Assembly (NCBI GenBank): GCA_051382295.1 | Contig: JBBCAW010000012.1 | Location: forward strand, 128,001-192,000 | DNA length: 64,000 bases | Direction: 5' to 3' | From: Bdellovibrionota bacterium FG-1 | Lineage (GTDB): Bacteria; Bdellovibrionota; UBA1018 | In this document: one piece after another, positions 7,511 through 50,143 of the stretch | Position numbering within the stretch: position 1 is the first letter of the stretch | Layout: each line of letters starts with the position of its first letter | Program-made: the position numbers and the translations under genes | The notes under the pieces: model-generated | Seen by the model: the letters and a program-made list of their open reading frames with translations, nothing else | Told to the model about the DNA's origin: nothing | Databases searched by the model: none

Positions 7511-10500
7511 ATGACTTTCACAAATGTGAAAACAGGATTGATGGCGATAAGCTACGGGCTCCTTTTGGGGCTTTCAGCAGGCTGTAATAAGGTAAACGAT
7601 GCGTTCACGCCACTCGCGGTGACAAGTAGTGGAGCGGGTGAGGAACCGACCGTCCTGGCACCTTCTGGGCTGGTTTGGACCGACAATAGTGGAACTTCTA
7701 TTGCTCTTTCATGGGCGGACAACGCCACCAATGGCGCCAACTACGAAGTGGAGAGTTGCATTGGCGCCGCTTGTACAGATTTCGCGCCGGTTCCTGGGTC
7801 TCCTTTCGGCGCTCACCTGACCAGTTACACTGCCGGGTCCCTCACTCCCAGCGCCACCTACCGCTTTCGCTTCCGGGCGTTGGCCGGCAAATCACCCAGC
7901 CCCTGGATTGAGTCCGGTGACACCATCGCCTTCGCGGGTTTGGCCTTGGCTGACCAGATTTCGTCCACCAGCGTACACCTGAGCTGGATCGCCGCCGCCG
8001 CCGCCGCAAATTACTTGATCTATGACGCCACGGGCGCCACTCCCGCGTTGCTCTCCACCGTGAACAGCGGAAGCAGTGCCGCGACGATTACGGGGCTGAC
8101 TCCATCGACGACCTATAAACTGAGAGTCAAGACCGTGGATGCAGCCGGAAATTTCGACCACAACTCCCACGACGTGGAAGTCACCACCCTGCCGAGTGTA
8201 CCCGCTGACCTTGGCGCACCATTGACACCCACTGTGCTTGCCGCCGGTACGATTACCACCACCTCGATCCCGATCACCTGGACGGACAACGCGACCAGCG
8301 AAACCTCTTATCAGATCCAACGCTGCTCCGGTACCGGCTGCTCTAATTTCGCGGATGTGACGGGTAATCCCTTTGCGATCAATCTCACTGCCTTTTCAGA
8401 AGGGGGCCTGACCCCGAACACAATCTATCGTTATCGAGTCCGAGCCACCAATGGTGCGGGTTCCAGTGCCTGGCTCACTTCGAGTGACTTGACGACGTTA
8501 CAAACCGCTCCCAATGCGCCGACTACGCTGGCCTGGACCGTAAATTCCGGGACTACCCTCGGTTTCAGTTGGACGGATAACGCTACCAACGAATCCTCTT
8601 ACGTCGTGGAAAGCTGCCAGACGGCGGGATGCGTGGACTTCACGCCCATCACCGGTTCACCGTTCGCGGCGAACACGACCTCGGCTACTCTTTCGGGGCT
8701 GACTGCTGCCACCTATTATCGAGTGCGAGTCTCCGCGAGTAATTCAGGGGGAAGTAGCAGCTCACTGATTAGCGGCAACCTCTTTACCTTCGCAGGGCTG
8801 AGTGCCGCAACGGCATCGGATGCCAACACGGTCCACCTGACCTGGAACAACGCCGGACTCGCCTCCTACTACACCCTCTACGATGTCACTTTGGGTACCC
8901 CGATCTTTGTGACGAGCATCGCAGGAGCGGCTTCGTCCTATGATGTGACAGGCCTCACTCCCTCGACCCACTATACCTATCGCCTGCGTGCTACGAACTC
9001 CAGTGCAGTCACTGAACTCAATGTCAACGATGTATCGGTCACCACACCCGCCCTTGCGGCTCCCGCGGCTCCGACGGCTCTCGTTGCTCTGGGTGGAACC
9101 CCCACCAGCTTGTCGATGAGTTGGACGGATAACGCCACCAACGAAACATCCTACGTGATTCAAAGCTGTACGGGCGCCGGATGTTCTAACTTCGCGGCGG
9201 TCACCAATTCGCCCTTTGCAGCGAATAAGACCTCCTACACCGCAAGCAGTCTGAGTGCGGGCACTACTTATAGTTTCAGAATTCGGGCCAGCAATTCGGC
9301 CGGCGACAGTAGCTGGCTGAGTGCAACGGATCTCGCGACCCCTTCTCCTGCGTCCGTGGGTTCAATCAGCAAAATAGATGGAGACACTCAGACCGATAAT
9401 CGCAGTAACACGCTGGCGACCGCGCTCAAAGTTCGGGTCCTCGACGCGCAGAGCGCGCCGGTGGTGGGAGCCTCGGTTGACTGGACCGTTCTTACCGGAG
9501 GTGGATCAGTAAGCGCTGCCACCAGCGTGAGCGACGGGACCGGCTACGCCACCATTAGCTTTACGCTTGGAACATTAGTCGGTGCTCAAAGCGTTAAGGC
9601 GGCCATAACGACAAACAACACTCTGAACGTCACCTTCACCGCCACTGCGACCAATCCTGCTGCCAGCTCAGTCATCTTGGTATCGGGTGATGCCCAAACT
9701 GCATACACGGGCCGGGACCTGGCACTGCCCCTTAAAGTTCGAGTGAGAGATTCACTTTCGCGCCCCATTGAAGGCCTGACTATCGACTGGACCAAGACCG
9801 GGACTGCCACTTTAGGCTCCGCAAGCAGCGTCACCGATTCTGCGGGCGAAGCCACCAGCACGGTCACGGTAGGTTCGAGTGCCTCCACCATTCAGGTCAC
9901 GGCAACTGTTGCGAGCAATACTGCACTGACGCAGGTTTTTAATTTCACTTCGACCGTTCCGACGGCTTCCACGATCGTGGCGACATCCGGAAATAGTCAG
10001 AGCGCGCCCGTCAGCTCGACGTTGGGCACGCCTTTTACGGTCACCGTTAAGGACGCCGGGGCCCTGGTCGTTGTGGGCGCCACCATCGATTGGAGTATCA
10101 CCGCTGGAGGGGGCTCGCTCAGCAGTGCTTCCGGTGCCACCAACAGTTCTGGGCAGGTTTCCACCACCTCGACACTTGGGGTCGCTGCCGGTACCCAAAC
10201 CGTGACGGCCACGGTCCATGGAACGGCGGTCACCGTCACGTTTACCACCACTGCCACTCCCATTCCCGGATCACTTGCAATCGTTCAGGGCAATTCGCAA
10301 ACTGGATACACTCAAACTGCATTGGCGACCGCGCTCTCCGTTCGAGTTTTGGACACCAATGGCCAAACTATTGCGGGCTCCACGATCAACTGGACAACGA
10401 CCGCGGGGAACGGGTCTCCTAGCGGTGCCACTTCTCTCACTGATGCTAATGGCTTGGCTTCAATGACCTGGACGCTTGGAAGCACGGTAGGAGCCGAAAC

Positions 10501-13500
10501 TCTCACCGCGACAATCAATGGCACAGCCATATCCCAAAACTTCACAGCCACTGCCGGCCTCCCACCGCTAGCCTCGATTGAAAAAATAGAGGGAGATAGC
10601 CAGACCGCCGTCAAGAGCACAGTGCTGCCGATCGCTTTGAAAGCGAGGGTCAAAGATACGAATTCGGTTATTCGCGCAGGTGTAACAGTCAATTGGACGG
10701 TCATTCAGGGAACCGCAACGGTGGGAGCCGCCACCAGTGTTACGGATTCGAATGGCGACGCCGTCATTACGGTCACACTGGGAAACGCCGGTGGAACAGT
10801 TTCCGTCAAAGCCGCGCTTGCTTCCGACGCCACGATTTCGACCGCTTTTTCAGAAACTGCGACCCTGCCTAGCACCAATGCGATCAATATTACCGCCGGC
10901 AATAACCAAACGGGCACCGTGGGCACGATCGCGAGCACCGCTTTGACCGTACAGGTCTTGGACGCAAGTGCCACTGGCATTCCTGGGCTTACGGTCAACT
11001 GGGCAGTCACGGCCGGGAGTCTTACGCTCACCTCGGCGAGTTCGACGACCAACGCCAGCGGAGTCGCGACCATGGCGGCAACTTTTGGCGGAACGGTATC
11101 AAACACGATCACCGTCACGGCAACCCCTTCGGGCTTCGGGTCATCGGCAAGCTTTTCGCTCTCGTCTACCGCTGGTGCACCCGCTTTGATTTCGGTTTAT
11201 TCGGGCAATAATCAGAGTGGCATCAGTGGTAGCGATCTCACGAATCCTTTGGTCGCGTTGGTCACAGACGCCTACGGAAATATGGTTTCCGGTGCGACCG
11301 TCAACTGGTTAGTCGTCACCGGTGCCGGCACTCTGGGCAGCGCCTCCTCGGTTTCAAATGGCTCGGGGCTGGCTTCTAACACCTGGAATCTTTCGGCGAC
11401 CGGCATTACTCAACATGTGACCGCGACCGAAGCTTCCAGCGGAGTTTCGACTTCCTTCTCTGCGGTGGCGAATGTCTGCACCGGAACCGGTCTGACCAAT
11501 GCCCCTTATGCGACCGGCTCGGGTACTGCCGCCAGTCCCTATTACATTTGCACCGCCACTCAGCTTTCAGCGCTCATGACCACCACGACTGCGGCTTCCT
11601 GGAGTGGGTATTATAAATTGGGCCAAGACGTCGATGCCACTGGCCTCACCCCGACCCCGATCGGCAGCGTCACCACCCCCTTCACCGGCACCTTTGACGG
11701 CAATAACTTCCAGATCACCCATCTGGCGGCCATGACGGGCAGTGCGGTCAATGTGGGGTTCTTTGGCTATATCAATTCAGCCACGATCAAAAATCTTTCG
11801 ATCACTTCGGCTGGGATCAGCGCCGGAAGTTATAACAACGTAGGAGGATTAGTCGGGTTTGCCAATAGCGGGACGATTTCGAATGTTACCGTGAACCTCA
11901 CGGGTAATATCACGGGCTCAAGTTATGTAGGTGGGCTTGTTGGCTCAACATACGCCAATACCGCCCCCTTGCTTGTCACCACGGCCCGAGTCCTCGGAGC
12001 GGTGACCATTACTGGGGTTGCCAATGTCGGTGGACTTTTTGGATATTTCAACAATGTCGCGTTGACCCAGGGACGCGCCGCACCTGCCGTGACGGGTACT
12101 CAGGCGACATCGACCTACGTCGGTGGAGCGATCGGTTATATGAATGGCGGAACCGTCGCGAAAAGTTACGCGACCGGAAATGTAACGGCGACCCAATACG
12201 CGGGCGGCTTTGTCGGTTACCAACAAACCGGGACCATCACCGATAGCTATGCTACTGGCAATCTCATCGGGACGACAGGATACCAGAAAATTGGGGGCTT
12301 TGCAGGATACCAAGGCGCAACCATGACGCGCGTCTATTCAAGAGGTATCGTCAACCCCACTACCACGAGCGATATTGGCGGCTTCATCGGTTACTCCCAA
12401 AGCCCGACTCTAGTGACTTTATCTCTTTGGGACACCACCACTTCCGGAAAAGGGACCAGCGGCACCAATGCCGTGGGCATGGGGCAAATCACCTCACTCA
12501 TGCAAAACCCTCTCACCTTCGCGGATTCTGAATGGGACTATACGGTTTGGGGACAATTGTCCTCTGACTGGCCGGCTCTCCGGTGGGACAATACGCTTCC
12601 AACGGTTTCAGTCCCTGCACTTTTCGCAAGTGGGTCTGGAACCGCCGCCGATCCGTACATAATCGCCAACACGACTCAATTCAGCAATATCCCCTTGGCT
12701 TTGGCGAGTTCTGTGGCAGCACGAGCCGCGACTTACAAGCTTTCGGACTCCTTGGCAGCTCCACTGGATTTTACCGGTATCGCTCTCGGCCGTATCGGAA
12801 GCGTCACCTTCCCCTTCACCGGGACTTTTGATGGCAGCTCTAAAACTTTGAGCAATATCACCCTGGTCGCCCGAAACAGCAATGCTGGCATCTTTGGATA
12901 CGTATCAGGGGCCACGATCAAGAACCTCACCGTGGACGTCACCTCCGTCACCTCGACCTACAGCACCAACAGCACGGCCATCAATACCGGAGGACTCATC
13001 GGCTCGGCCACCTCCTCCACCATCAGCAACATCACCGCCACCATCGGTACCGTGAACACCCCAAACACGGCCTCAACCAGTGGTCCCACTGGCGTGGGCG
13101 GCCTCATCGGCTTCGCGGCCAACAGCACCTTGACCAACCTCAATGTCACCCTCAGCGGCACCGTGCAAGGAACCTCTTATGTGGGCGGCATCGTCGGGGA
13201 TAACGGCAGCGCCACCGGCGGCGGCACCTACACCACTCTCAAACTCACCAAGAGCGGATCGGGGGCCATCAGTGGATATCAGTACGTCGGCGGACTCTTT
13301 GGTGGATTTGGCCATTCCTTCTCCTCGGCCTTCACCGTCACTCAATGCGCCAATGTCGGGGTCCCCGTCACCGGCACCTACACTAGCTATAGCTATAGCG
13401 GGGGCGTGGTCGGTTATATCTACTCTGCCCCCTCAGGGATGACCATGTCCCAATGCTACTCTACCGGCAATGTCACGGGCTCTATGTATACCGGCGGCTT

Positions 13501-16375
13501 TGTCGGACAAATCTATGCAACTGGCACTACTTCTATTACGGACTCCTATGCTACGGGCTCCGTCACCAGTACCGGTAACAACACGTCGGTCGGATGTTTT
13601 GCCGGTGAAACCGGTGCCGGAGCCACTCTCTCTCGCGTCTATGCTTCTAATAGCAGCTTCACGGACACCAATGCCGCCACCACCACCCTTGGAGGGGTTG
13701 TCGGTAATTACAACGGGGGCGCCACCACGATCGATTCTTTCTGGAATACCGGAGCCACCGCCAAAGTCGGCGCAGGCGGAATGGGGCATACGACCGCGGA
13801 GCTCCAGGACATCAGCACCTTCCTGCCTGCCGGCTGGGATTTTGCCTCGACCTGGGCCATGCCCAGCCCCAGTTCGGTCAACGGCGGCTTTCCGATTCTC
13901 AGATACGACGCCACTGTCCCTAGTATCACGCTGGCTTCCCTGCTGCCTCTGGGCTCCGGTACTTCAGGCGATCCTTATATTATCGGGGACGTCGCCACCT
14001 TCAAAAACATTGCCGTGGCCATGAGCCTATTTACGGCGCCGCGTGCCGCCTATTATAAACAGACTTCTAATCTGGACTTCACGAGCACGATTCCATCCGT
14101 CATCGGCACCAACAGTACCCCCTTCACCGGGACTTACGATGGTAATGGTTTCTCGATCTCCAATGTCACTTTGGTCGCAGTCGAAGCCAAAACCGGCCTC
14201 TTTGGCAATATCTCTGGCGCCACGATCAAGAACCTCACCTTGAACGTCACCTCCGTCACGACGATTTTTCCCAACGTTGGAGCGCTCGTTGGTTTCGCCA
14301 CCTCTTCGACCATCACCAATATCACCGCAAACATCACGGCAGTCACCTCGACCTACAGCACCACCAGCACGGCCATCAATACCGGAGGACTCATCGGCTC
14401 GGCCACCTCCTCCACCATCAGCAACATCACCGCCACCATCGGTACCGTGAACACCCCAAACACGGCCTCAACCAGTGGTCCCACTGGCGTGGGCGGCCTC
14501 ATCGGCTTCGCGGCCAACAGCACCTTGACCAACCTCAATGTCACCCTCAGCGGCACCGTGCAAGGAACCTCTTATGTGGGCGGCATCGTCGGGGATAACG
14601 GCAGCGCCACCGGCGGCGGCACCTACACCACTCTCAAACTCACCAAGAGCGGATCGGGGGCCATCAGTGGATATCAGTACGTCGGCGGACTCTTTGGTGG
14701 ATTTGGCCATTCCTTCTCCTCGGCCTTCACCGTCACTCAATGCGCCAATGTCGGGGTCCCCGTCACCGGCACCTACACTAGCTATAGCTATAGCGGGGGC
14801 GTGGTCGGTTATATCTACTCTGCCCCCTCAGGGATGACCATGTCCCAATGCTACTCTACCGGCAATGTCACGGGCTCTATGTATACCGGCGGCTTTGTCG
14901 GACAAATCTATGCAACTGGCACTACTTCTATTACGGACTCCTATGCTACGGGCTCCGTCACCAGTACCGGTAACAACACGTCGGTCGGATGTTTTGCCGG
15001 TGAAACCGGTGCCGGAGCCACTCTCTCTCGCGTCTATGCTTCTAATAGCAGCTTCACGGACACCAATGCCGCCACCACCACCCTTGGAGGGGTTGTCGGT
15101 AATTACAACGGGGGCGCCACCACGATCGATTCCTTCTGGAATACCGGAGCCACCGCCAAAGTCGGCGCAGGCGGAAACGGCGTGAGCACGGCCACGATGC
15201 AAAAGCAGTCTCACTGGGTCAATCACACTTTTGACTTTGCCAACACCTGGGTGATGAGCGGACTGCCCGTTCTCAAGTGGGATAGCGGGAGCCCCTCTGC
15301 CCCAACCCTCGCCTCGCTCTTTGGCGGCGGATCAGGAACCTCGGGCGATCCCTACCTGATCTCCACCGTCCAGCATCTAAAGAATTTGAGCGTGGCCATG
15401 TACTTGGGTTCAGCCGCGCAAAATGCCTCTTATTTATTACTCAATGACCTCGATGTCGCAGGCGACCACTATGTCATCGGCAACGCTGCTTATCCGTTCA
15501 AAGGGGATTTCAATGGAAATGGCAAAACCATCTCCAATGTCGCGGTCGCGGTCTTGATGGGAGACAATATTGGATTCTTTGGCTATGTCGACTCCGGCTC
15601 CACGACCAATACTCAGATTTACGACTTGAACATCACACTGGCCGCAGGAGGCATTTCGGCAGGAATCACCTCCACCTCTGCCTCCAATTACGTGGGCGGC
15701 CTGGTCGGACAGGTTCGCTCGACGGGCAGCACTCGAACCACCATTTCCAACTGCCAAGTCAGCACCAGCGCTGCGGGACCCGTTGCAGGATACTCCTCCG
15801 TCGGTGGGCTCGTCGGCTATCTTTACAACTACTCGACGGTTTATCACTCTTTTGCGGGAGTGGCGGTATCCGGAGTGGGAACGAGCAGCAATAGCTATGC
15901 CGGTGGGCTGGTCGGCATAAACGACACCTTCTCCACCATCAGCCAGAGCTACGCGAGCGGCAATGTATCCGGTCTTAACTTCGTCGGTGGACTCGTCGGC
16001 ACCAACCAGAACACGAGTCTGATCAACGACTCTTATGCCACGGGGACGGTAACAGGAACTGCCGCCGCCAATGCGGGGGGCTTTGCCGGCACCAATACGT
16101 CTAGTTCGACCATTATACGTTGTTATTCCAAGGGCTCCATTGGGACTGGAGGCGGACTGGTGGGCGCTAACAGTGGCACCGCAGTCAGCAACTCGTTCTG
16201 GGATATCACCACCTCTGGCAAGGGCAGCGACGGCGCCACGACCGGTAGCTCCGGGGGTACCGGGTACAACACCACGCACATGCAGACCACGACGACCTTT
16301 ACGGGAGCCGGCTGGAGCGCCCTGCCGATCTGGGTGTTCAGCGGGGGCAATAATGCTTATCCGACCCTATATTGA
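7511..16375 (+). CDS. Giant (2954 aa) surface lipoprotein/adhesin: FN3 repeats, 7 bacterial Ig-like repeats, 4 GLUG-type beta-helix modules
   Basis: Lipobox LSAGC; FN3 WxDNATNE...YRFRxRA; Ig-like G(D/N)xQ(T/S) x7; GSGTxx(D/S)PYxI x4 followed by many VGGLVG/GLUG motifs; very Thr/Ser/Gly-rich. Confidence 0.9.
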   Translation: MTFTNVKTGLMAISYGLLLGLSAGCNKVNDAFTPLAVTSSGAGEEPTVLAPSGLVWTDNSGTSIALSWADNATNGANYEVESCIGAACTDFAPVPGSPFGAHLTSYTAGSLTPSATYRFRFRALAGKSPSPWIESGDTIAFAGLALADQISSTSVHLSWIAAAAAANYLIYDATGATPALLSTVNSGSSAATITGLTPSTTYKLRVKTVDAAGNFDHNSHDVEVTTLPSVPADLGAPLTPTVLAAGTITTTSIPITWTDNATSETSYQIQRCSGTGCSNFADVTGNPFAINLTAFSEGGLTPNTIYRYRVRATNGAGSSAWLTSSDLTTLQTAPNAPTTLAWTVNSGTTLGFSWTDNATNESSYVVESCQTAGCVDFTPITGSPFAANTTSATLSGLTAATYYRVRVSASNSGGSSSSLISGNLFTFAGLSAATASDANTVHLTWNNAGLASYYTLYDVTLGTPIFVTSIAGAASSYDVTGLTPSTHYTYRLRATNSSAVTELNVNDVSVTTPALAAPAAPTALVALGGTPTSLSMSWTDNATNETSYVIQSCTGAGCSNFAAVTNSPFAANKTSYTASSLSAGTTYSFRIRASNSAGDSSWLSATDLATPSPASVGSISKIDGDTQTDNRSNTLATALKVRVLDAQSAPVVGASVDWTVLTGGGSVSAATSVSDGTGYATISFTLGTLVGAQSVKAAITTNNTLNVTFTATATNPAASSVILVSGDAQTAYTGRDLALPLKVRVRDSLSRPIEGLTIDWTKTGTATLGSASSVTDSAGEATSTVTVGSSASTIQVTATVASNTALTQVFNFTSTVPTASTIVATSGNSQSAPVSSTLGTPFTVTVKDAGALVVVGATIDWSITAGGGSLSSASGATNSSGQVSTTSTLGVAAGTQTVTATVHGTAVTVTFTTTATPIPGSLAIVQGNSQTGYTQTALATALSVRVLDTNGQTIAGSTINWTTTAGNGSPSGATSLTDANGLASMTWTLGSTVGAETLTATINGTAISQNFTATAGLPPLASIEKIEGDSQTAVKSTVLPIALKARVKDTNSVIRAGVTVNWTVIQGTATVGAATSVTDSNGDAVITVTLGNAGGTVSVKAALASDATISTAFSETATLPSTNAINITAGNNQTGTVGTIASTALTVQVLDASATGIPGLTVNWAVTAGSLTLTSASSTTNASGVATMAATFGGTVSNTITVTATPSGFGSSASFSLSSTAGAPALISVYSGNNQSGISGSDLTNPLVALVTDAYGNMVSGATVNWLVVTGAGTLGSASSVSNGSGLASNTWNLSATGITQHVTATEASSGVSTSFSAVANVCTGTGLTNAPYATGSGTAASPYYICTATQLSALMTTTTAASWSGYYKLGQDVDATGLTPTPIGSVTTPFTGTFDGNNFQITHLAAMTGSAVNVGFFGYINSATIKNLSITSAGISAGSYNNVGGLVGFANSGTISNVTVNLTGNITGSSYVGGLVGSTYANTAPLLVTTARVLGAVTITGVANVGGLFGYFNNVALTQGRAAPAVTGTQATSTYVGGAIGYMNGGTVAKSYATGNVTATQYAGGFVGYQQTGTITDSYATGNLIGTTGYQKIGGFAGYQGATMTRVYSRGIVNPTTTSDIGGFIGYSQSPTLVTLSLWDTTTSGKGTSGTNAVGMGQITSLMQNPLTFADSEWDYTVWGQLSSDWPALRWDNTLPTVSVPALFASGSGTAADPYIIANTTQFSNIPLALASSVAARAATYKLSDSLAAPLDFTGIALGRIGSVTFPFTGTFDGSSKTLSNITLVARNSNAGIFGYVSGATIKNLTVDVTSVTSTYSTNSTAINTGGLIGSATSSTISNITATIGTVNTPNTASTSGPTGVGGLIGFAANSTLTNLNVTLSGTVQGTSYVGGIVGDNGSATGGGTYTTLKLTKSGSGAISGYQYVGGLFGGFGHSFSSAFTVTQCANVGVPVTGTYTSYSYSGGVVGYIYSAPSGMTMSQCYSTGNVTGSMYTGGFVGQIYATGTTSITDSYATGSVTSTGNNTSVGCFAGETGAGATLSRVYASNSSFTDTNAATTTLGGVVGNYNGGATTIDSFWNTGATAKVGAGGMGHTTAELQDISTFLPAGWDFASTWAMPSPSSVNGGFPILRYDATVPSITLASLLPLGSGTSGDPYIIGDVATFKNIAVAMSLFTAPRAAYYKQTSNLDFTSTIPSVIGTNSTPFTGTYDGNGFSISNVTLVAVEAKTGLFGNISGATIKNLTLNVTSVTTIFPNVGALVGFATSSTITNITANITAVTSTYSTTSTAINTGGLIGSATSSTISNITATIGTVNTPNTASTSGPTGVGGLIGFAANSTLTNLNVTLSGTVQGTSYVGGIVGDNGSATGGGTYTTLKLTKSGSGAISGYQYVGGLFGGFGHSFSSAFTVTQCANVGVPVTGTYTSYSYSGGVVGYIYSAPSGMTMSQCYSTGNVTGSMYTGGFVGQIYATGTTSITDSYATGSVTSTGNNTSVGCFAGETGAGATLSRVYASNSSFTDTNAATTTLGGVVGNYNGGATTIDSFWNTGATAKVGAGGNGVSTATMQKQSHWVNHTFDFANTWVMSGLPVLKWDSGSPSAPTLASLFGGGSGTSGDPYLISTVQHLKNLSVAMYLGSAAQNASYLLLNDLDVAGDHYVIGNAAYPFKGDFNGNGKTISNVAVAVLMGDNIGFFGYVDSGSTTNTQIYDLNITLAAGGISAGITSTSASNYVGGLVGQVRSTGSTRTTISNCQVSTSAAGPVAGYSSVGGLVGYLYNYSTVYHSFAGVAVSGVGTSSNSYAGGLVGINDTFSTISQSYASGNVSGLNFVGGLVGTNQNTSLINDSYATGTVTGTAAANAGGFAGTNTSSSTIIRCYSKGSIGTGGGLVGANSGTAVSNSFWDITTSGKGSDGATTGSSGGTGYNTTHMQTTTTFTGAGWSALPIWVFSGGNNAYPTLY
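12947..13781 (+). repeat. Copy 1 of an 835-bp near-perfect intragenic duplication
   Basis: Matches 14342-15176 at an offset of 1395 bp; only 2 differences seen. Confidence 0.9.
14342..15176 (+). repeat. Copy 2 of the 835-bp intragenic duplication
   Basis: See copy 1; the shadow ORFs in the track are duplicated as well. Confidence 0.9.
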
Positions 16376-21910: not shown

Positions 21911-22045
21911 CGGTGCAATGTGCCTCGGTGCAGTGTGCCTCGGTGCAGTGTGCCTTGGTGCAGTGTGCCTCGGTGCAGTGTGCCTTGGTGCAGTGTGCCT
22001 TGGTGCAGTGTGCCTTGGTGCAGTGTGCCTTGGTGCAGTGTGCCG
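21911..22045. repeat. Minisatellite, 9 x 15 bp (YGGTGCAGTGTGCCT)
   Basis: Counted directly; no spacers; followed by a short inverted partial unit (GAGGCAC). Confidence 0.95.
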
Positions 22046-22057
22046 AGGCACCGTGTC

Positions 22058-22177
22058 CCCGGTTCCCACATGAAGAAATCTCCGCTGAAGGGGGAGGGGA
22101 TCCGCGCGCGCAGGATGCGCGTTTTTAGCGCGGAGGCCTAGGATGGCCGACCCCGACCCCCTTTAGCGAGATTTCTT
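22058..22177 (+). mobile_element. Dispersed ~120-bp structured element, copy A (overlaps the last codons of rimK)
   Basis: CCCGGnnCCCACAT, then arm 22073-22094, core AGGGGATCCGCGCGCGCAGGATGCGCGTTTTTAGCGCGGAGGCCTAGGATGGCCGACCCCGA, and anti-arm 22157-22177. Mobility is inferred from the dispersed copies. Confidence 0.7.
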
Positions 22178-23038
22178 GCGCATATGGCGAATCATCATCG
22201 CCGCGATATTCAGCCCCGTGGCTTTTTCGATTCCCTCAAACCCGGGCGAACTGTTCACTTCCAAAATGAGTGGTCCCTCGTGACTTTCCATGAGGTCGAC
22301 CCCGGCGATTTCTAATCCTAAAATTTTTGCGGCACGTATAGCGGCTTTTTCGTATTCTTTATTGAGTCGCACTAAACTGCCTTCGCCGCCCCGGTGAATG
22401 TTAGATCTGAACTCGCCTTCAGGTGCCGTGCGCATCATCGCGGCGACCACCTTGTCGCCAATCACGAAAGCGCGGTAATCACGGCCAGCGGCTTCGGAGA
22501 TAAATCGTTGAATCATCACTTCCTGCTCAAGCCCGTGGAGCGTATCGAGCACCGAGCCGAGCGATACCGGGGTATGCACGAGCATCACCCCCACGCCTTG
22601 GGTGCCTTCGAGAACTTTTAACACGACAGGCATTCCGTTGACCGCTTCGACCGCAGCTCTCAGTCCTCGTGCGCTGCGACTGAGGACCGTGGCGGGAACC
22701 AAAAGTCGCGCACGAGTCAGGATCTGAAGGCAGGTCATCTTATCGCGCGAATTTCCGATGGCTTCACAGCTATTGACCGTGTACATGCCCAGGACTTCGA
22801 ATTGCTTGACCACCGCCAACCCGTAGGTCGTGATGGAAGCCCCGATTCTGGGTAAAACCGCATCGAAATGCGGAATGGCCCTGCCATTGACCATGATTCG
22901 AGTGCGCTTGCCATCCACCACCACTTGGCATTCCAAAGGGTTGATGATATCGCACCGGACGCGAGCCTTTCGGGCCTCCCGTAGAAGGCGACGAATACTA
23001 TGGAGGTTTTTATTGCGCGAAAGGATCGCGATGCGCAT
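22163..23038 (-). CDS. rimK: RimK-family ATP-grasp ligase
   Basis: MRIAILSRN...SIRRL, FDAVLPRIGAS, GTQGVGV, EFRSNIHRGG, EVNSSPGFEGIE. Confidence 0.92.
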   Translation of the reverse strand: MRIAILSRNKNLHSIRRLLREARKARVRCDIINPLECQVVVDGKRTRIMVNGRAIPHFDAVLPRIGASITTYGLAVVKQFEVLGMYTVNSCEAIGNSRDKMTCLQILTRARLLVPATVLSRSARGLRAAVEAVNGMPVVLKVLEGTQGVGVMLVHTPVSLGSVLDTLHGLEQEVMIQRFISEAAGRDYRAFVIGDKVVAAMMRTAPEGEFRSNIHRGGEGSLVRLNKEYEKAAIRAAKILGLEIAGVDLMESHEGPLILEVNSSPGFEGIEKATGLNIAAMMIRHMRKKSR

Positions 23039-23046
23039 CACTCAGC

Positions 23047-47934: not shown

Positions 47935-48411
47935 TTCTGCGCAGGACGGGCGATCGCTGGCGCCGCGCCTTTACGGGCTGCAGTGCGGGAGGAAAGTCCG
48001 GGCTCCATTAAGCAAGGTACTGGCTAACGGCCAGGCAGGGGATTCGCGAGGATCTCTGGACGGAAAGTGCAACAGAAAACAAACCGCCCAGATTATTGGA
48101 GTTTACTTCGATGAACTGGGTAAGGGCGAAACGGTGGGGTAAGAGCCCACCGCACCTTTGGTGACAAAGGTGGCACGGCAAACCCTACCTGGAGCAAGGT
48201 CAAATAGGGGGGCGTTTCCCTCTCGCTGCGACGGTGAGCATAGCTCGCTGGCGCGGCAAAAAGAGGGGACAAGGTCGGCTCGACCGATGCCTCCGGGTAA
48301 GACCGCTTGAACGCCGCAGTAATGCGGAGTCTAGAGGAATGGTCGCCTCCAACCGAGGAGCGAAAGTTTTTCGGTTGAAGACAGAACCCGGCTTACAGTC
48401 CTGTGCAGGAA
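47935..48411 (+). ncRNA. rnpB: RNase P RNA (bacterial type A)
   Basis: GAGGAAAGTCCGGGCTCCA, GGAAAGTGCAACAGAAAAC, GGGTAAGAGCCCACC, GGCAAACCC, ACAGAACCCGGCTTA; P1 CTGCGCAGGAC pairs with GTCCTGTGCAG. Confidence 0.96.
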
Positions 48412-48524
48412 TTCTAAAAAAAGAGGGTCGGGGTCGTCCATCCTAGGACTCCGCGCAAAAACGCGCATCCTGCGCGCGCGGATCCCCTCTCTCTTTTTTT
48501 AGAATTCCTTATGTGGGACCCGGG
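48407..48524 (-). mobile_element. Dispersed structured element, copy B (abuts the rnpB 3' end)
   Basis: Reverse complement of the copy A core; flanked by a perfect 19-bp inverted repeat (48407-48425 / 48491-48509); CCCGGgtCCCACAT motif at 48511-48524 on the minus strand. Confidence 0.7.
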
Positions 48525-48614
48525 AGGCGGGCTTAGAGTACGGGCGTTTGTCATGTGGCCACTCGAAATGATCGCCATTTGCGAATGGTATTTTCTGCGG
48601 TACATCTTGATTGA

Positions 48615-48764
48615 ATGAAAAGTATTGTAGCTTTGGCATTTATTGGAAGTCTCTGGTGTAGTCTTGGTAATGCAGCAAGCAGCACCTCACTGAGCACGAC
48701 CGAAAGCATCGTATGGCGGCATTCCCAGAATCGACTTTTCCTTGATTCTGAAACACTCACATAA
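48615..48764 (+). pseudogene. 49-aa ORF with a signal peptide, probably a truncated secreted protein
   Basis: MKSIVALAFIGSLWCSLGNAASSTS...; below the ORF-track cutoff. Confidence 0.35.
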
Positions 48765-48782
48765 AGCACGGGTGGTATAAAG

Positions 48783-49220
48783 ATGGCAAGATCAGTGGCA
48801 TTGCTGGTGGTACTTTCGTACTTGTGCGCGCCATACTTCGCGCATGCGACCTCAAGCAAGTTTCATTATGAGCCGGAGAAAGTCACCCTGACAGGAACGA
48901 TTGAGAAACAAACCTTCCCTGGTCGTCCGGGATACGAAAGTATCAAAAATGGCGATGAAATCGAGCGGGGATGGTATTTGCGTCTAGCAGACCCAATTGA
49001 CGTTGAAGAAACCAAAAATGACACTGATCCAAATTCATCCACGGAACGAAATGTGCGCATTCTGCAACTGACATGGGAGTCCGGACGGGTCGAGGACCTG
49101 ATTCGCCCTGCCACCGGAAAAAGCGTCAAGCTTTTCGGACATCTGTTTCACGCGTTAAGCGGACATCATCACGCAAGGGTCTTGTTCTGGGTGGATTCCT
49201 GTGAGGTAATAAATAGATGA
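48783..49220 (+). CDS. Secreted DUF4431-like protein
   Basis: Signal peptide; VTLTGTIEKQTFPGRPGYESIKNGDE...GHLFHALSGHHHARVL. Confidence 0.7.
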   Translation: MARSVALLVVLSYLCAPYFAHATSSKFHYEPEKVTLTGTIEKQTFPGRPGYESIKNGDEIERGWYLRLADPIDVEETKNDTDPNSSTERNVRILQLTWESGRVEDLIRPATGKSVKLFGHLFHALSGHHHARVLFWVDSCEVINR

Positions 49221-49567
49221 GATTTATTTCGGCACACAAACAGGGACATTCCGTCATCTATATTGCGGACGATGGATCGGTAGTCAAGTATTTTGGGGGC
49301 GATCCCGCTTGGCGCACCAACAATCCAGGCAACCTCCACGCAGGAAAAATCAGCAATCGAAACAATCAGATCGGGAAATTCGGAAACTTCGCCATTTTTC
49401 CCGATTATGAAACAGGTCATGCAGCACTTCTTGATTCGCTTCACACGACTTTTTGGCAGAAAACCCTCGACGAAATGATTCTTGGATATGCGCCAAAACA
49501 TGAAAACAACACTTCACGTTATCTCAAGTTTTTGAAAGGACAAGACCGGCGTAAAAGGCGGGCGTAA
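49217..49567 (+). pseudogene. Lysozyme-like/phage-type NNPGN-motif protein, C-terminally frameshifted or truncated
   Basis: ATGA overlap; AWRTNNPGNL...FAIFPDYETG...YAPKHENNTSRY; both reading frames end within ~15 codons after YLKFLK. Confidence 0.55.
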
Positions 49568-49781
49568 AAAATAAGAAGGGCGTCATTATTTCTTATAACG
49601 TTGATGGTTTGGGCTGGGTTTCCTGTGTCTGGGGCCATCCTTTCAGATCACATTAAGAGCCTTGACTGGAAAACAAGAAAAGCCGAGTTTAAGGGGCGTG
49701 TCCCCAAAACTGTTCTTGCGGCAGTCCTCGAACGAGTAGCGGCTCTCCTGACCTGATTTTTAGGCATTTCAAATGCTCGCT

Positions 49782-49866
49782 AAACCAAACCAAACCAAAC
49801 CAAACCAAACCAAACCAAACCAAACCAAACCAAACCAAACCAAACCAAACCAAACCAAACCAAACC
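49782..49866. repeat. Perfect microsatellite (AAACC)17
   Basis: 85 bp counted directly; intergenic. Confidence 0.95.
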
Positions 49867-50026
49867 CGCGAGACCCAGGAATTCCGAAGTCTTTGATCAG
49901 CCCTTTGACATCAAAACGAAGTACTGCCAAAGAACGTCCGGGACTTCCCAGATCGTTTCCAGCGGCTTGGGCTTACGACTAGTCGCTCGCTAGGACTTCA
50001 TCGAAAGTTCGCTCTGGCTCGTTGAT

Positions 50027-50143
50027 CCCGGACCCCACGTAAGGGGCTTCCCAGTAAAAATGAGGGGATCCGCGCGCGCAGGAGGCGCTTTTTGCGCGGA
50101 GGCCAGGGATGGCCGACCCCGACACTTTTTACTGGGGGCCCCT
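50027..50143 (+). mobile_element. Dispersed structured element, copy C
   Basis: CCCGGacCCCACGT, then arm 50042-50062, core 50063-50122 and anti-arm 50123-50143. Confidence 0.7.

Follow-up and report, generated by a model that had tools for sequence, protein, structure and literature searches.

The sponge RNAs of Csr/Rsm systems (CsrB/C, RsmX/Y/Z) expose GGA motifs in hairpin loops of 5-6 nt. The closest described structure to the repeat presented here is the TwoAYGGAY motif (RF01731), known from Weinberg et al. 2010 (PMC2864571) and from Gardner and Eldai (PMC4333381), the latter source proposing it as a binder of CsrA. A preprint describes an extension of the motif in Pseudomonadota by three more hairpins and a 3' pseudoknot, and in its available text the spread of TwoAYGGAY and the link between mobility and Csr/Rsm are left open (Li et al., bioRxiv 10.64898/2026.09.22.753630). 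Comparable at the DNA level are the REP/REPIN sequences, defined as palindromes of 20-50 nt with a GTAG-type tetranucleotide on their 5' side (PMC3116915, PMC8266576), and the YPAL/RU-2 repeats of Yersinia (PMC2229807). Finally, inverted repeats and RNA stems can be perfected by template switching (PMC5941160, PMC8794818).

The window, i.e. the whole stretch of DNA that was analysed, comprises 64,000 nucleotides from Bdellovibrionota bacterium FG-1 (G000; in what follows G numbers denote genomes, C numbers contigs and L numbers loci). It contains three copies of one repeat, all with the same layout: copy A at 22058-22177 (+), copy B at 48407-48524 (-) and copy C at 50027-50143 (+). The features of these regions are as follows.

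21912..22044, + strand: tandem array of 8.9 units of 15 nt, immediately 5' of copy A (TRF)
22051..22071, + strand: C-rich 5' leader of copy A, ending in CCCACRT (22065-22071)
22072..22093, + strand: 5' arm of the closing stem of copy A, a variant of arm type II
22094..22156, + strand: conserved core of copy A with GA/GA internal loop, GGGG/CCCC helix and three-way junction; two hairpins, loops AGGAT and TAGGAT
22157..22177, + strand: 3' arm of copy A; on the opposite strand rimK ends here, its last codons lying in the arm and its stop at 22163-22165
22163..23041, - strand: rimK-family ATP-grasp gene (Pfam), convergent with copy A
47938..48411, + strand: RNase P RNA, class A (Rfam), convergent with copy B; overlap of 4-5 nt between its P1 end and the end of the stem
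48407..48427, - strand: 3' arm of copy B
48428..48489, - strand: conserved core of copy B, two GGA loops
48490..48510, - strand: 5' arm of copy B, outer part of type II, inner part A-rich
48511..48524, - strand: C-rich 5' leader of copy B, CCCACRT at 48511-48517
48525..50026, no strand: spacer of the divergent pair B-C, about 1.5 kb
48783-49220: DUF4431 gene, between B and C
49217-49567: open reading frame of 116 aa without Pfam match, between B and C
49782-49866: 5-nt repeat, 17 units, between B and C, 5' of C (TRF)
50027..50040, + strand: C-rich 5' leader of copy C, CCCACRT at 50034-50040
50041..50061, + strand: 5' arm of copy C, type I, common to many unrelated loci
50062..50122, + strand: conserved core of copy C, loops AGGAG and AGGGAT
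50123..50143, + strand: 3' arm of copy C; the leader of a co-directional HTH/PAS/HATPase gene comes next

Another part of the window (7511-16375) is taken up by an open reading frame of 2954 aa.

The arrangement of leader, arm, core and anti-arm with paired arms had been proposed in the initial annotation from the letters alone, and it was borne out for all three copies. The stem of A has 22 paired columns including one G-U, with one bulge; that of B starts with a single mismatch next to the core and continues with 18 uninterrupted pairs; that of C has 11 pairs and, past a bulge and a G-U, another 6. Folding z-scores of the three copies ranged from -3.0 to -6.4 as RNA and from -5.2 to -8.8 as DNA, and in none of the 12 folds (RNA and DNA) did any of 200 shuffles equal the native fold. 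The same annotation had correctly located the end of rimK with its minus-strand stop codon in the anti-arm of A (Pfam RimK) and the 3' end of RNase P RNA in that of B, where the overlap amounts to its final 4-5 nt. Nor was it mistaken in seeing no conservation past the anti-arm: the comparison of 42 downstream flanks revealed no common sequence 3' of the stem, only a single 17-nt match.

The window copies are members of a family of non-coding repeats of ~120 nt. An HMM of the core gave 38 nhmmer matches in this genome, two of which are probably one locus split across contig ends, and a covariance model gave 44. The predicted fold, on the strand that reads GGA, starts from a closing stem of 15-27 bp. 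A GA/GA internal loop and a GGGG/CCCC helix follow and lead to a three-way junction, which bears two hairpins with loops of the form AGGAN or ANGGAN. Two-sided changes were present at 20 of 35 pairs in a sequence-only alignment of 31 copies. The arms diverge faster than the core (mean identity 0.53 versus 0.87 in 33 copies), and 640 of 678 aligned stem pairs in 39 copies are Watson-Crick. Among the mismatches of these stems G-U exceeds A-C (18 versus 1; 11 versus 1 when distinct positions are counted, P=0.006), which distinguishes the GGA strand as the marked strand.

Three long variants carry, in place of the second loop, a module of ~75 nt with two further AGGA hairpins, and this module is also present in a sister subfamily. 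There are at least three sister subfamilies of the same plan, two of them with true ATGGAT loops. A subfamily with ATGGAT and AGGAA loops has stems of 20-27 bp and is the source of the weak RF01731 matches given below; it was seen at C38:58944-59023, C85:10941, C5:96002, C5:6115, C39:27333, C41:1341, C23:69963-70114, C8:33120 and C89:9-114, and some of its copies bear the extra-loop module of the window family. Another long-stem repeat family (C137:28552, C8:13278, C56:9638, C22:10835, C53:71739) ends 3-8 nt from convergent stop codons and forms divergent pairs with the window family, and a further one was observed at C41:28402, C141:26715, C52:42898, C112:12236 and C5:45252. The 5' side of the copies often shows short repeats or small cargo. 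Arrays with units of 9, 14 and 16 nt precede other copies, several 5' leaders are runs of G on the opposite strand, and degenerate G(N)YCC repeats lie in register 5' of the leader at 2.4 per 47 nt against 0.4, an enrichment that is partly circular because the pattern was derived from the same copies. Remnants truncated at the 5' end outnumber those truncated at the 3' end, about 8 to 2 in a count by eye. Readings of the 5' leader as sigma-32-like and of the 5' arrays as G-quadruplexes were weighed by eye and not adopted.

No described family had initially been recognised for this layout, the GGA loops having been overlooked; the layout is that of TwoAYGGAY. In both, two successive hairpins with GGA loops rise from one elongated basal stem, GA pairs occur in tandem and a genome holds tens of copies. 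Shared as well are divergent doublets, which here make up six of the seven neighbour pairs within 2 kb (B-C included) in a set of 60 copies from the family and its sisters; degenerate short repeats on the 5' side (here a motif taken from the same copies); and variants in which further GGA hairpins replace the 3' hairpin. The differences concern the loops, which are mostly AGGAN/ANGGAN, as in the window subfamily, and sometimes ACGAN instead of AYGGAY, the lineage, and the score, which lies under the Rfam cut-off. ATGGAT loops do occur in the sister subfamilies and in many relatives, and the RF01731 seed itself includes variants of the AGGAN/ANGGAN type. With RF01731 (gathering cut-off 43 bits) there was no match at the window copies or at 20 copies of the genome, 24-27 bits, 26.7 at best, at four sister-subfamily copies and 28.5-31 bits at three copies among 40 loci of relatives. 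A further difference is that the locking to gene ends and the host-mirrored arms described below are not reported in the available text of the TwoAYGGAY literature. The repeat is thus TwoAYGGAY-like and not a formal member. At the gathering and E-value level Rfam held no family for it, and weak matches to EFASI, rsmX and miRNA models, all under their cut-offs, were rejected. A description of the family was not found in a mostly open-access literature, taken without the supplements of the TwoAYGGAY papers, which may list Bdellovibrionota.

The arms had been described as different in each copy and matched to their own locus. For A and B this holds: with its own anti-arm the arm of A reaches 13, with those of 38 other copies no more than 8.5, and the arm of B scores 18 against a best of 6 among 38. 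The arm of C, in contrast, pairs better with the anti-arm of another copy (14.5) than with its own (12). Copy by copy throughout the genome complementarity is high, as the stem pairs counted above show, but the own anti-arm is the strictly best partner for only 18 of 39 arms. Fifteen of 39 copies, at unrelated loci, share an arm of type I with at most 2 mismatches, and this type is also found in another genus; a second arm type (at most 3 mismatches) is present in five copies. The stems of the window copies are mainly borne by the element itself, and since this is so, the earlier alternative of a fast-evolving closing stem under pairing constraint fits them; it does not fit the relatives, whose arms mirror host DNA. 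The anti-arm of A is a variant of type II that supplies the final codons of rimK, and because RimK tails are basic and variable in 28 of 29 relatives read, they cannot decide its origin. At one copy of this genome, on C78, the arm was probably copied from the flank: it has a unique stem extension of 10 bp that ends at a stop codon. Three 17-mers resembling the type-I anti-arm stand alone at gene edges. We read them as remnants; counter to this, they could be empty targets.

Such lone sites, few as they are, and the preference of the A and B arms for their own flank would be expected if the arm were a guide that recognises a pre-existing complementary target, in the manner of group II intron EBS/IBS pairing or IS110 bridge RNA, as the initial annotation had suggested. 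However, identical arms and anti-arms occur at the 15 unrelated loci, and in five copies of one relative (G047) conserved motifs flank the variable stem on both sides. The anti-arm is also missing at one orthologous element-free site, though the history of that site is uncertain. No IS110 gene was matched in this 98%-complete genome, and neither of two reverse transcriptase matches lies beside a copy. Guide-like targeting is therefore unsupported, given the missing IS110 gene and the arm shared by unrelated loci, and we consider it extremely improbable.

What the copies do share is their position. The neighbour is a convergent gene for 18 of the 39, a co-directional gene for 20 and a contig end for one. 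In 17 of the 18 convergent cases the stop codon is inside the element or no more than 5 nt from the end of the stem, and the remaining copy faces rnpB; random intergenic points come within 10 nt in 6-15%. Thirteen of the 20 co-directional copies are located 30-80 nt ahead of the start, and a sigma70-like box with a score of at least 12 begins within 15 nt in 12 of 20 (16.5% in the null). The genes used for these counts were called with a simple hexamer caller of our own. The 5' side is less locked to gene boundaries than the 3' side. No tRNA neighbours were found in this genome (20 loci; 43 copies). Here the contact of the 3' ends with gene boundaries involves no mirrored sequence, and overwriting of the arm does not explain it.

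A BLAST search with copy C gave no match in 40 relatives, so that a covariance model was needed. The first model matched 15 of 140 relatives. A broadened model (E<=1e-4) matched at least 44 of 140, at least 29 of the 74 genomes of the host family and none of nine in the other many-genome family of the same class, counts that are lower bounds because 25 candidates were scored per genome. With a loose pattern 12 of 88 loci in genome contigs were real, and as all of these records belong to Oligoflexia or Bacteriovoracaceae the host range is, to judge from them, likely to be Bdellovibrionota. An exact 22-nt core pattern found no locus in metagenome and viral contigs, and the one locus that the loose pattern found in viral contigs had no stem and was rejected. 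In 67 copies two-sided changes affect 31 of 33 pairs, in an alignment that is fitted to the model and leans to structure.

We examined 123 distinct copies from relatives. Their positions are not conserved between genera, and their stems reach 40-170 bp. At 66 of the 123 the nearest downstream neighbour is a convergent protein gene with a homologue in FG-1; 34 of these 66 stop codons are in the stem or at most 10 nt from its end, 10 of them with an overlap of at least 8 nt. The corresponding figures for the upstream side are 15 of 44 close or inside and 8 of 44 overlapping (P=0.08 for the difference). In 12 copies of G047 the first stem segment measures 41-63 bp, independent of the distance to the gene. 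Nested stems extend to about 170 bp, with internal loops between the segments. Six G047 loci (L105, L106, L107, L114, L227 and L342) are nearly perfect palindromes with arms of 145-170 nt, and the palindromes occupy the entire space between two convergent genes.

Comparison with adjoining genes and element-free orthologues shows that the arm in relatives is a mirror copy of host DNA, and this in both directions. The final 23 nt of a gene recur in the 5' arm of L341, altered at two positions, each of them synonymous; arm and gene alike encode HKVFHG-stop, and the element-free orthologue in FG-1 terminates at the equivalent codon and with the same motif, in the form HRVFRG-stop. The arm of L109 mirrors the tail of DnaB, whose PDRGD is conserved in the orthologue, and the arms of L113 and L105 mirror other protein tails with some drift. 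In the opposite sense, the 3' arm of L342 is a perfect 40-nt mirror of the end of the upstream gene, partly conserved in the orthologue, and the mirror ends 1 nt ahead of the downstream stop. Genes for tRNA lie head-on at 12 of 40 relative loci scanned (40 of 60 fetched). The stem enters the tRNA by 3-33 nt at 10 of these 12, and six of the 12 arms hold an exact copy of 14-25 nt across the tRNA end, the best other locus giving at most 13. At L327 and L353 direct repeats of the tRNA 3' end, 21-22 nt long, separate tandem copies of the element, and the tRNA ends are present both as direct and as inverted copies. In three tRNA trailers (L327:860-1520, L353:930-1560, L325:840-1600) fragments of the tRNA 3' end, some direct and some inverted, alternate with GC-rich hairpin modules and with copies of the element in tandem. 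Isolated mismatches in relatives (29 G-U, 22 A-C, P=0.40) show no strand bias, as expected from copying at the DNA level followed by decay; the G-U excess of the FG-1 stems is absent there. The suggestion that the arm is copied from its flank is thus upheld for coding and tRNA ends in relatives and probably for the C78 copy, and is mostly not borne out for the stems of FG-1.

These mirrors recall the correction of quasi-palindromes by template switching, which likewise yields multi-base compensatory changes, perfect stems and outward growth by flank-to-flank copying. That, though, is a general mutation process, whereas here we see a dispersed conserved core, a spacer of 60-100 nt and arms up to about 170 bp. 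The main rival to later template switching would place the copying at insertion: synthesis across the element, primed by a nick at the end of a gene and followed by a fold-back copy of the target, would make a locus-matched arm and leave an inverted target duplication (at tRNAs also a direct one), and later hops would carry old arms inward. The sharp 3' end and variable 5' end, the in-register G(N)YCC repeats, the surplus of 5'-truncated remnants, the distance-independent first segment in G047, the nested stems and the two-fold tRNA-end copies at L327 and L353 all suit such a process. It accounts less well for mirrors of both the downstream (10 of 66) and the upstream gene (8 of 44), for the 15 of 39 copies here that lack a locus-specific arm and for the lack of a linked enzyme. 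We think it rather unlikely.

Unoccupied sites could in principle separate the two, but no clean empty site was found, and copying at insertion is therefore indistinguishable from copying afterwards. The 29 rimK loci and 24 rnpB loci of relatives carry no element, which we take as one sign of mobility. In the sole orthologous pair a near-identical contig, assigned to another bin, has a copy; at the corresponding place FG-1 retains the 5' leader, from which 9 nt lead up to the shared stop codon, and lacks arm, core and anti-arm. This leader-only site is ambiguous between a deletion remnant and an empty site. The L072 contig (G064:C126) is 94-97% identical to FG-1, the rest of its bin about 70%, and it was probably mis-binned from a close relative. 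Relatives beyond this pair are too distant to show target sequence at empty sites, and for G047 no second species of the genus was available for comparison. The 5' leader was considered as a pre-existing target and rejected, since its one intergenic solo match is itself a truncated copy. No target duplication was seen in this genome (37-39 copies; for 37 copies the longest direct repeat within 3 kb is 11 nt), and direct repeats of the 3' flank of 21-42 nt accompany 5 of 115 copies in relatives, a further sign of mobility. In this respect the element resembles YPAL/RU-2, a rod-like intergenic repeat without terminal TA that adjoins gene ends and has target duplications of variable length (PMC2229807), which here are confined to some relatives. 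It differs in having no duplication in FG-1, and host-mirrored arms are not mentioned in the available text of that review; the likeness is one of description, not of sequence comparison.

A co-occurring enzyme, which had been envisaged, was not encountered: no Y1/RAYT, IS110 or reverse transcriptase gene adjoins a copy, and no mobilising enzyme was found among these three classes. The two reverse transcriptase genes (L069, C141:167-847; L070, C122:41-364) lie at contig ends and score below all NCBIfam cut-offs. Conserved terminal inverted repeats matching an IS are absent; the termini are the least conserved part of the element. There are nine Y1_Tnp matches, seven of them in a multi-copy RAYT-like family, and it might be thought that the repeat is a REP/REPIN-type DNA hairpin moved by such a Y1 (HUH) transposase, with no role as RNA. 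Like REP/REPIN it is an extragenic hairpin repeat without target duplication here, in a genome with Y1 transposases; its fold is strand-specific and is predicted for DNA as well, and GTGG/GTAG is found at the foot of the hairpin on the opposite strand. This tetranucleotide is, however, 3' of the hairpin and not 5', the fold is branched, about 105 nt long and has a variable stem, and none of the nine Y1 loci is flanked by the element, the nearest (1.5 kb) being an IS200 with hairpins of its own. Moreover, 81 of 141 genomes contain the RAYT-like family, and no member was found in G005 and G042, which bear the element. We regard this explanation as very unlikely. The RAYT-like proteins measure ~200 aa and gave 10 matches here; in the copies L023-L029 (C33, C1, C41, C61, C98, C130) similarity extends no further than the stop codon, and a flanking REP was not seen.

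The GGA loops make CsrA a plausible candidate ligand of the core, although not a universal one. In FG-1 csrA adjoins fliW, and it is present in four of five relatives tested. GGA is found in both loops of 81 of the 123 relative copies, in one loop of 33 and in neither of 9. In G018 five of eight copies have no GGA loop, yet a near-identical csrA is present; G090 has GGA loops but no csrA match (84% complete). As GGA loops and csrA do not always coincide, the link is a weak one, and CsrA is a candidate and not a conclusion. The G018 copies L306, L339, L354-L358 and L379 are those in which ACGAT or ACGAA loops replace GGA.

One could therefore regard the copies as fixed paralogous sponge RNAs of the Csr/Rsm type, the stems of which change solely by compensatory substitution under selection. 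As in those sponges there are at least two GGA sites in hairpin loops and the host encodes CsrA, with the G018 exceptions; the long variants add two more AGGA loops, and one long variant matches the rsmX model weakly (19.2 bits versus 56). The proposal of TwoAYGGAY as a CsrA binder (PMC4333381), the activity of Bdellovibrio CsrA on a GGA target (PMC13443453), the csrA-fliW linkage and the G-U excess in FG-1 also favour this reading. Selection alone, though, is unable to put 23-40 nt of coding or tRNA sequence from the host in an arm. Positions differ between genera, 40-70 copies are present per genome and most G018 copies lack GGA. In contrast to the known sponges this is a dispersed multi-copy repeat with two to four loops and no evident promoter or terminator of its own (none was consistent at B and C), in a host with a FliW-linked type of CsrA. 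We judge a fixed sponge family to be quite unlikely.

The model that we favour, and hold to be probable as a whole, is that of a mobile hairpin with GGA loops at gene ends whose arms are re-copied by template switching. The element would be mobile but non-autonomous and would insert directly at gene ends. The complementarity of its arms would be kept by fold-back copying of one arm from the other, a template switch that may act in both directions, with selection stopping the copying at the first essential base; in relatives this process would have carried host gene and tRNA ends into the arm. A protein would bind the conserved core in its single GGA strand, as RNA or as single-stranded DNA, and CsrA is the best named candidate for the ligand. 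If CsrA does bind, small decoys with two CsrA sites would arise from read-through or processed transcripts. A bolder reading starts from copying at insertion: a protein-less element would home on gene boundaries (stop codons, tRNA and RNase P 3' ends and -35 boxes), write a locus-matched arm by target-primed synthesis and fold-back copying with an enzyme of the host or one supplied in trans, and leave inverted target duplications and 5' arrays. This would also be the mechanism by which CsrA-site modules of the TwoAYGGAY type spread, but we put it forward only tentatively and do not expect it to hold.

For repeats of the TwoAYGGAY type these observations add, in another lineage, a precise placement against gene boundaries, long stems rewritten from adjoining host DNA, which thus preserve gene and tRNA ends as mirror copies that can be dated, and the exchange of the same extra-loop module between subfamilies. 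They also carry a warning, namely that perfect covariation in long stems can reflect a copying process and not RNA function. If CsrA binding holds, the copies would qualify as candidate RNA antagonists, in a host whose CsrA is FliW-linked.
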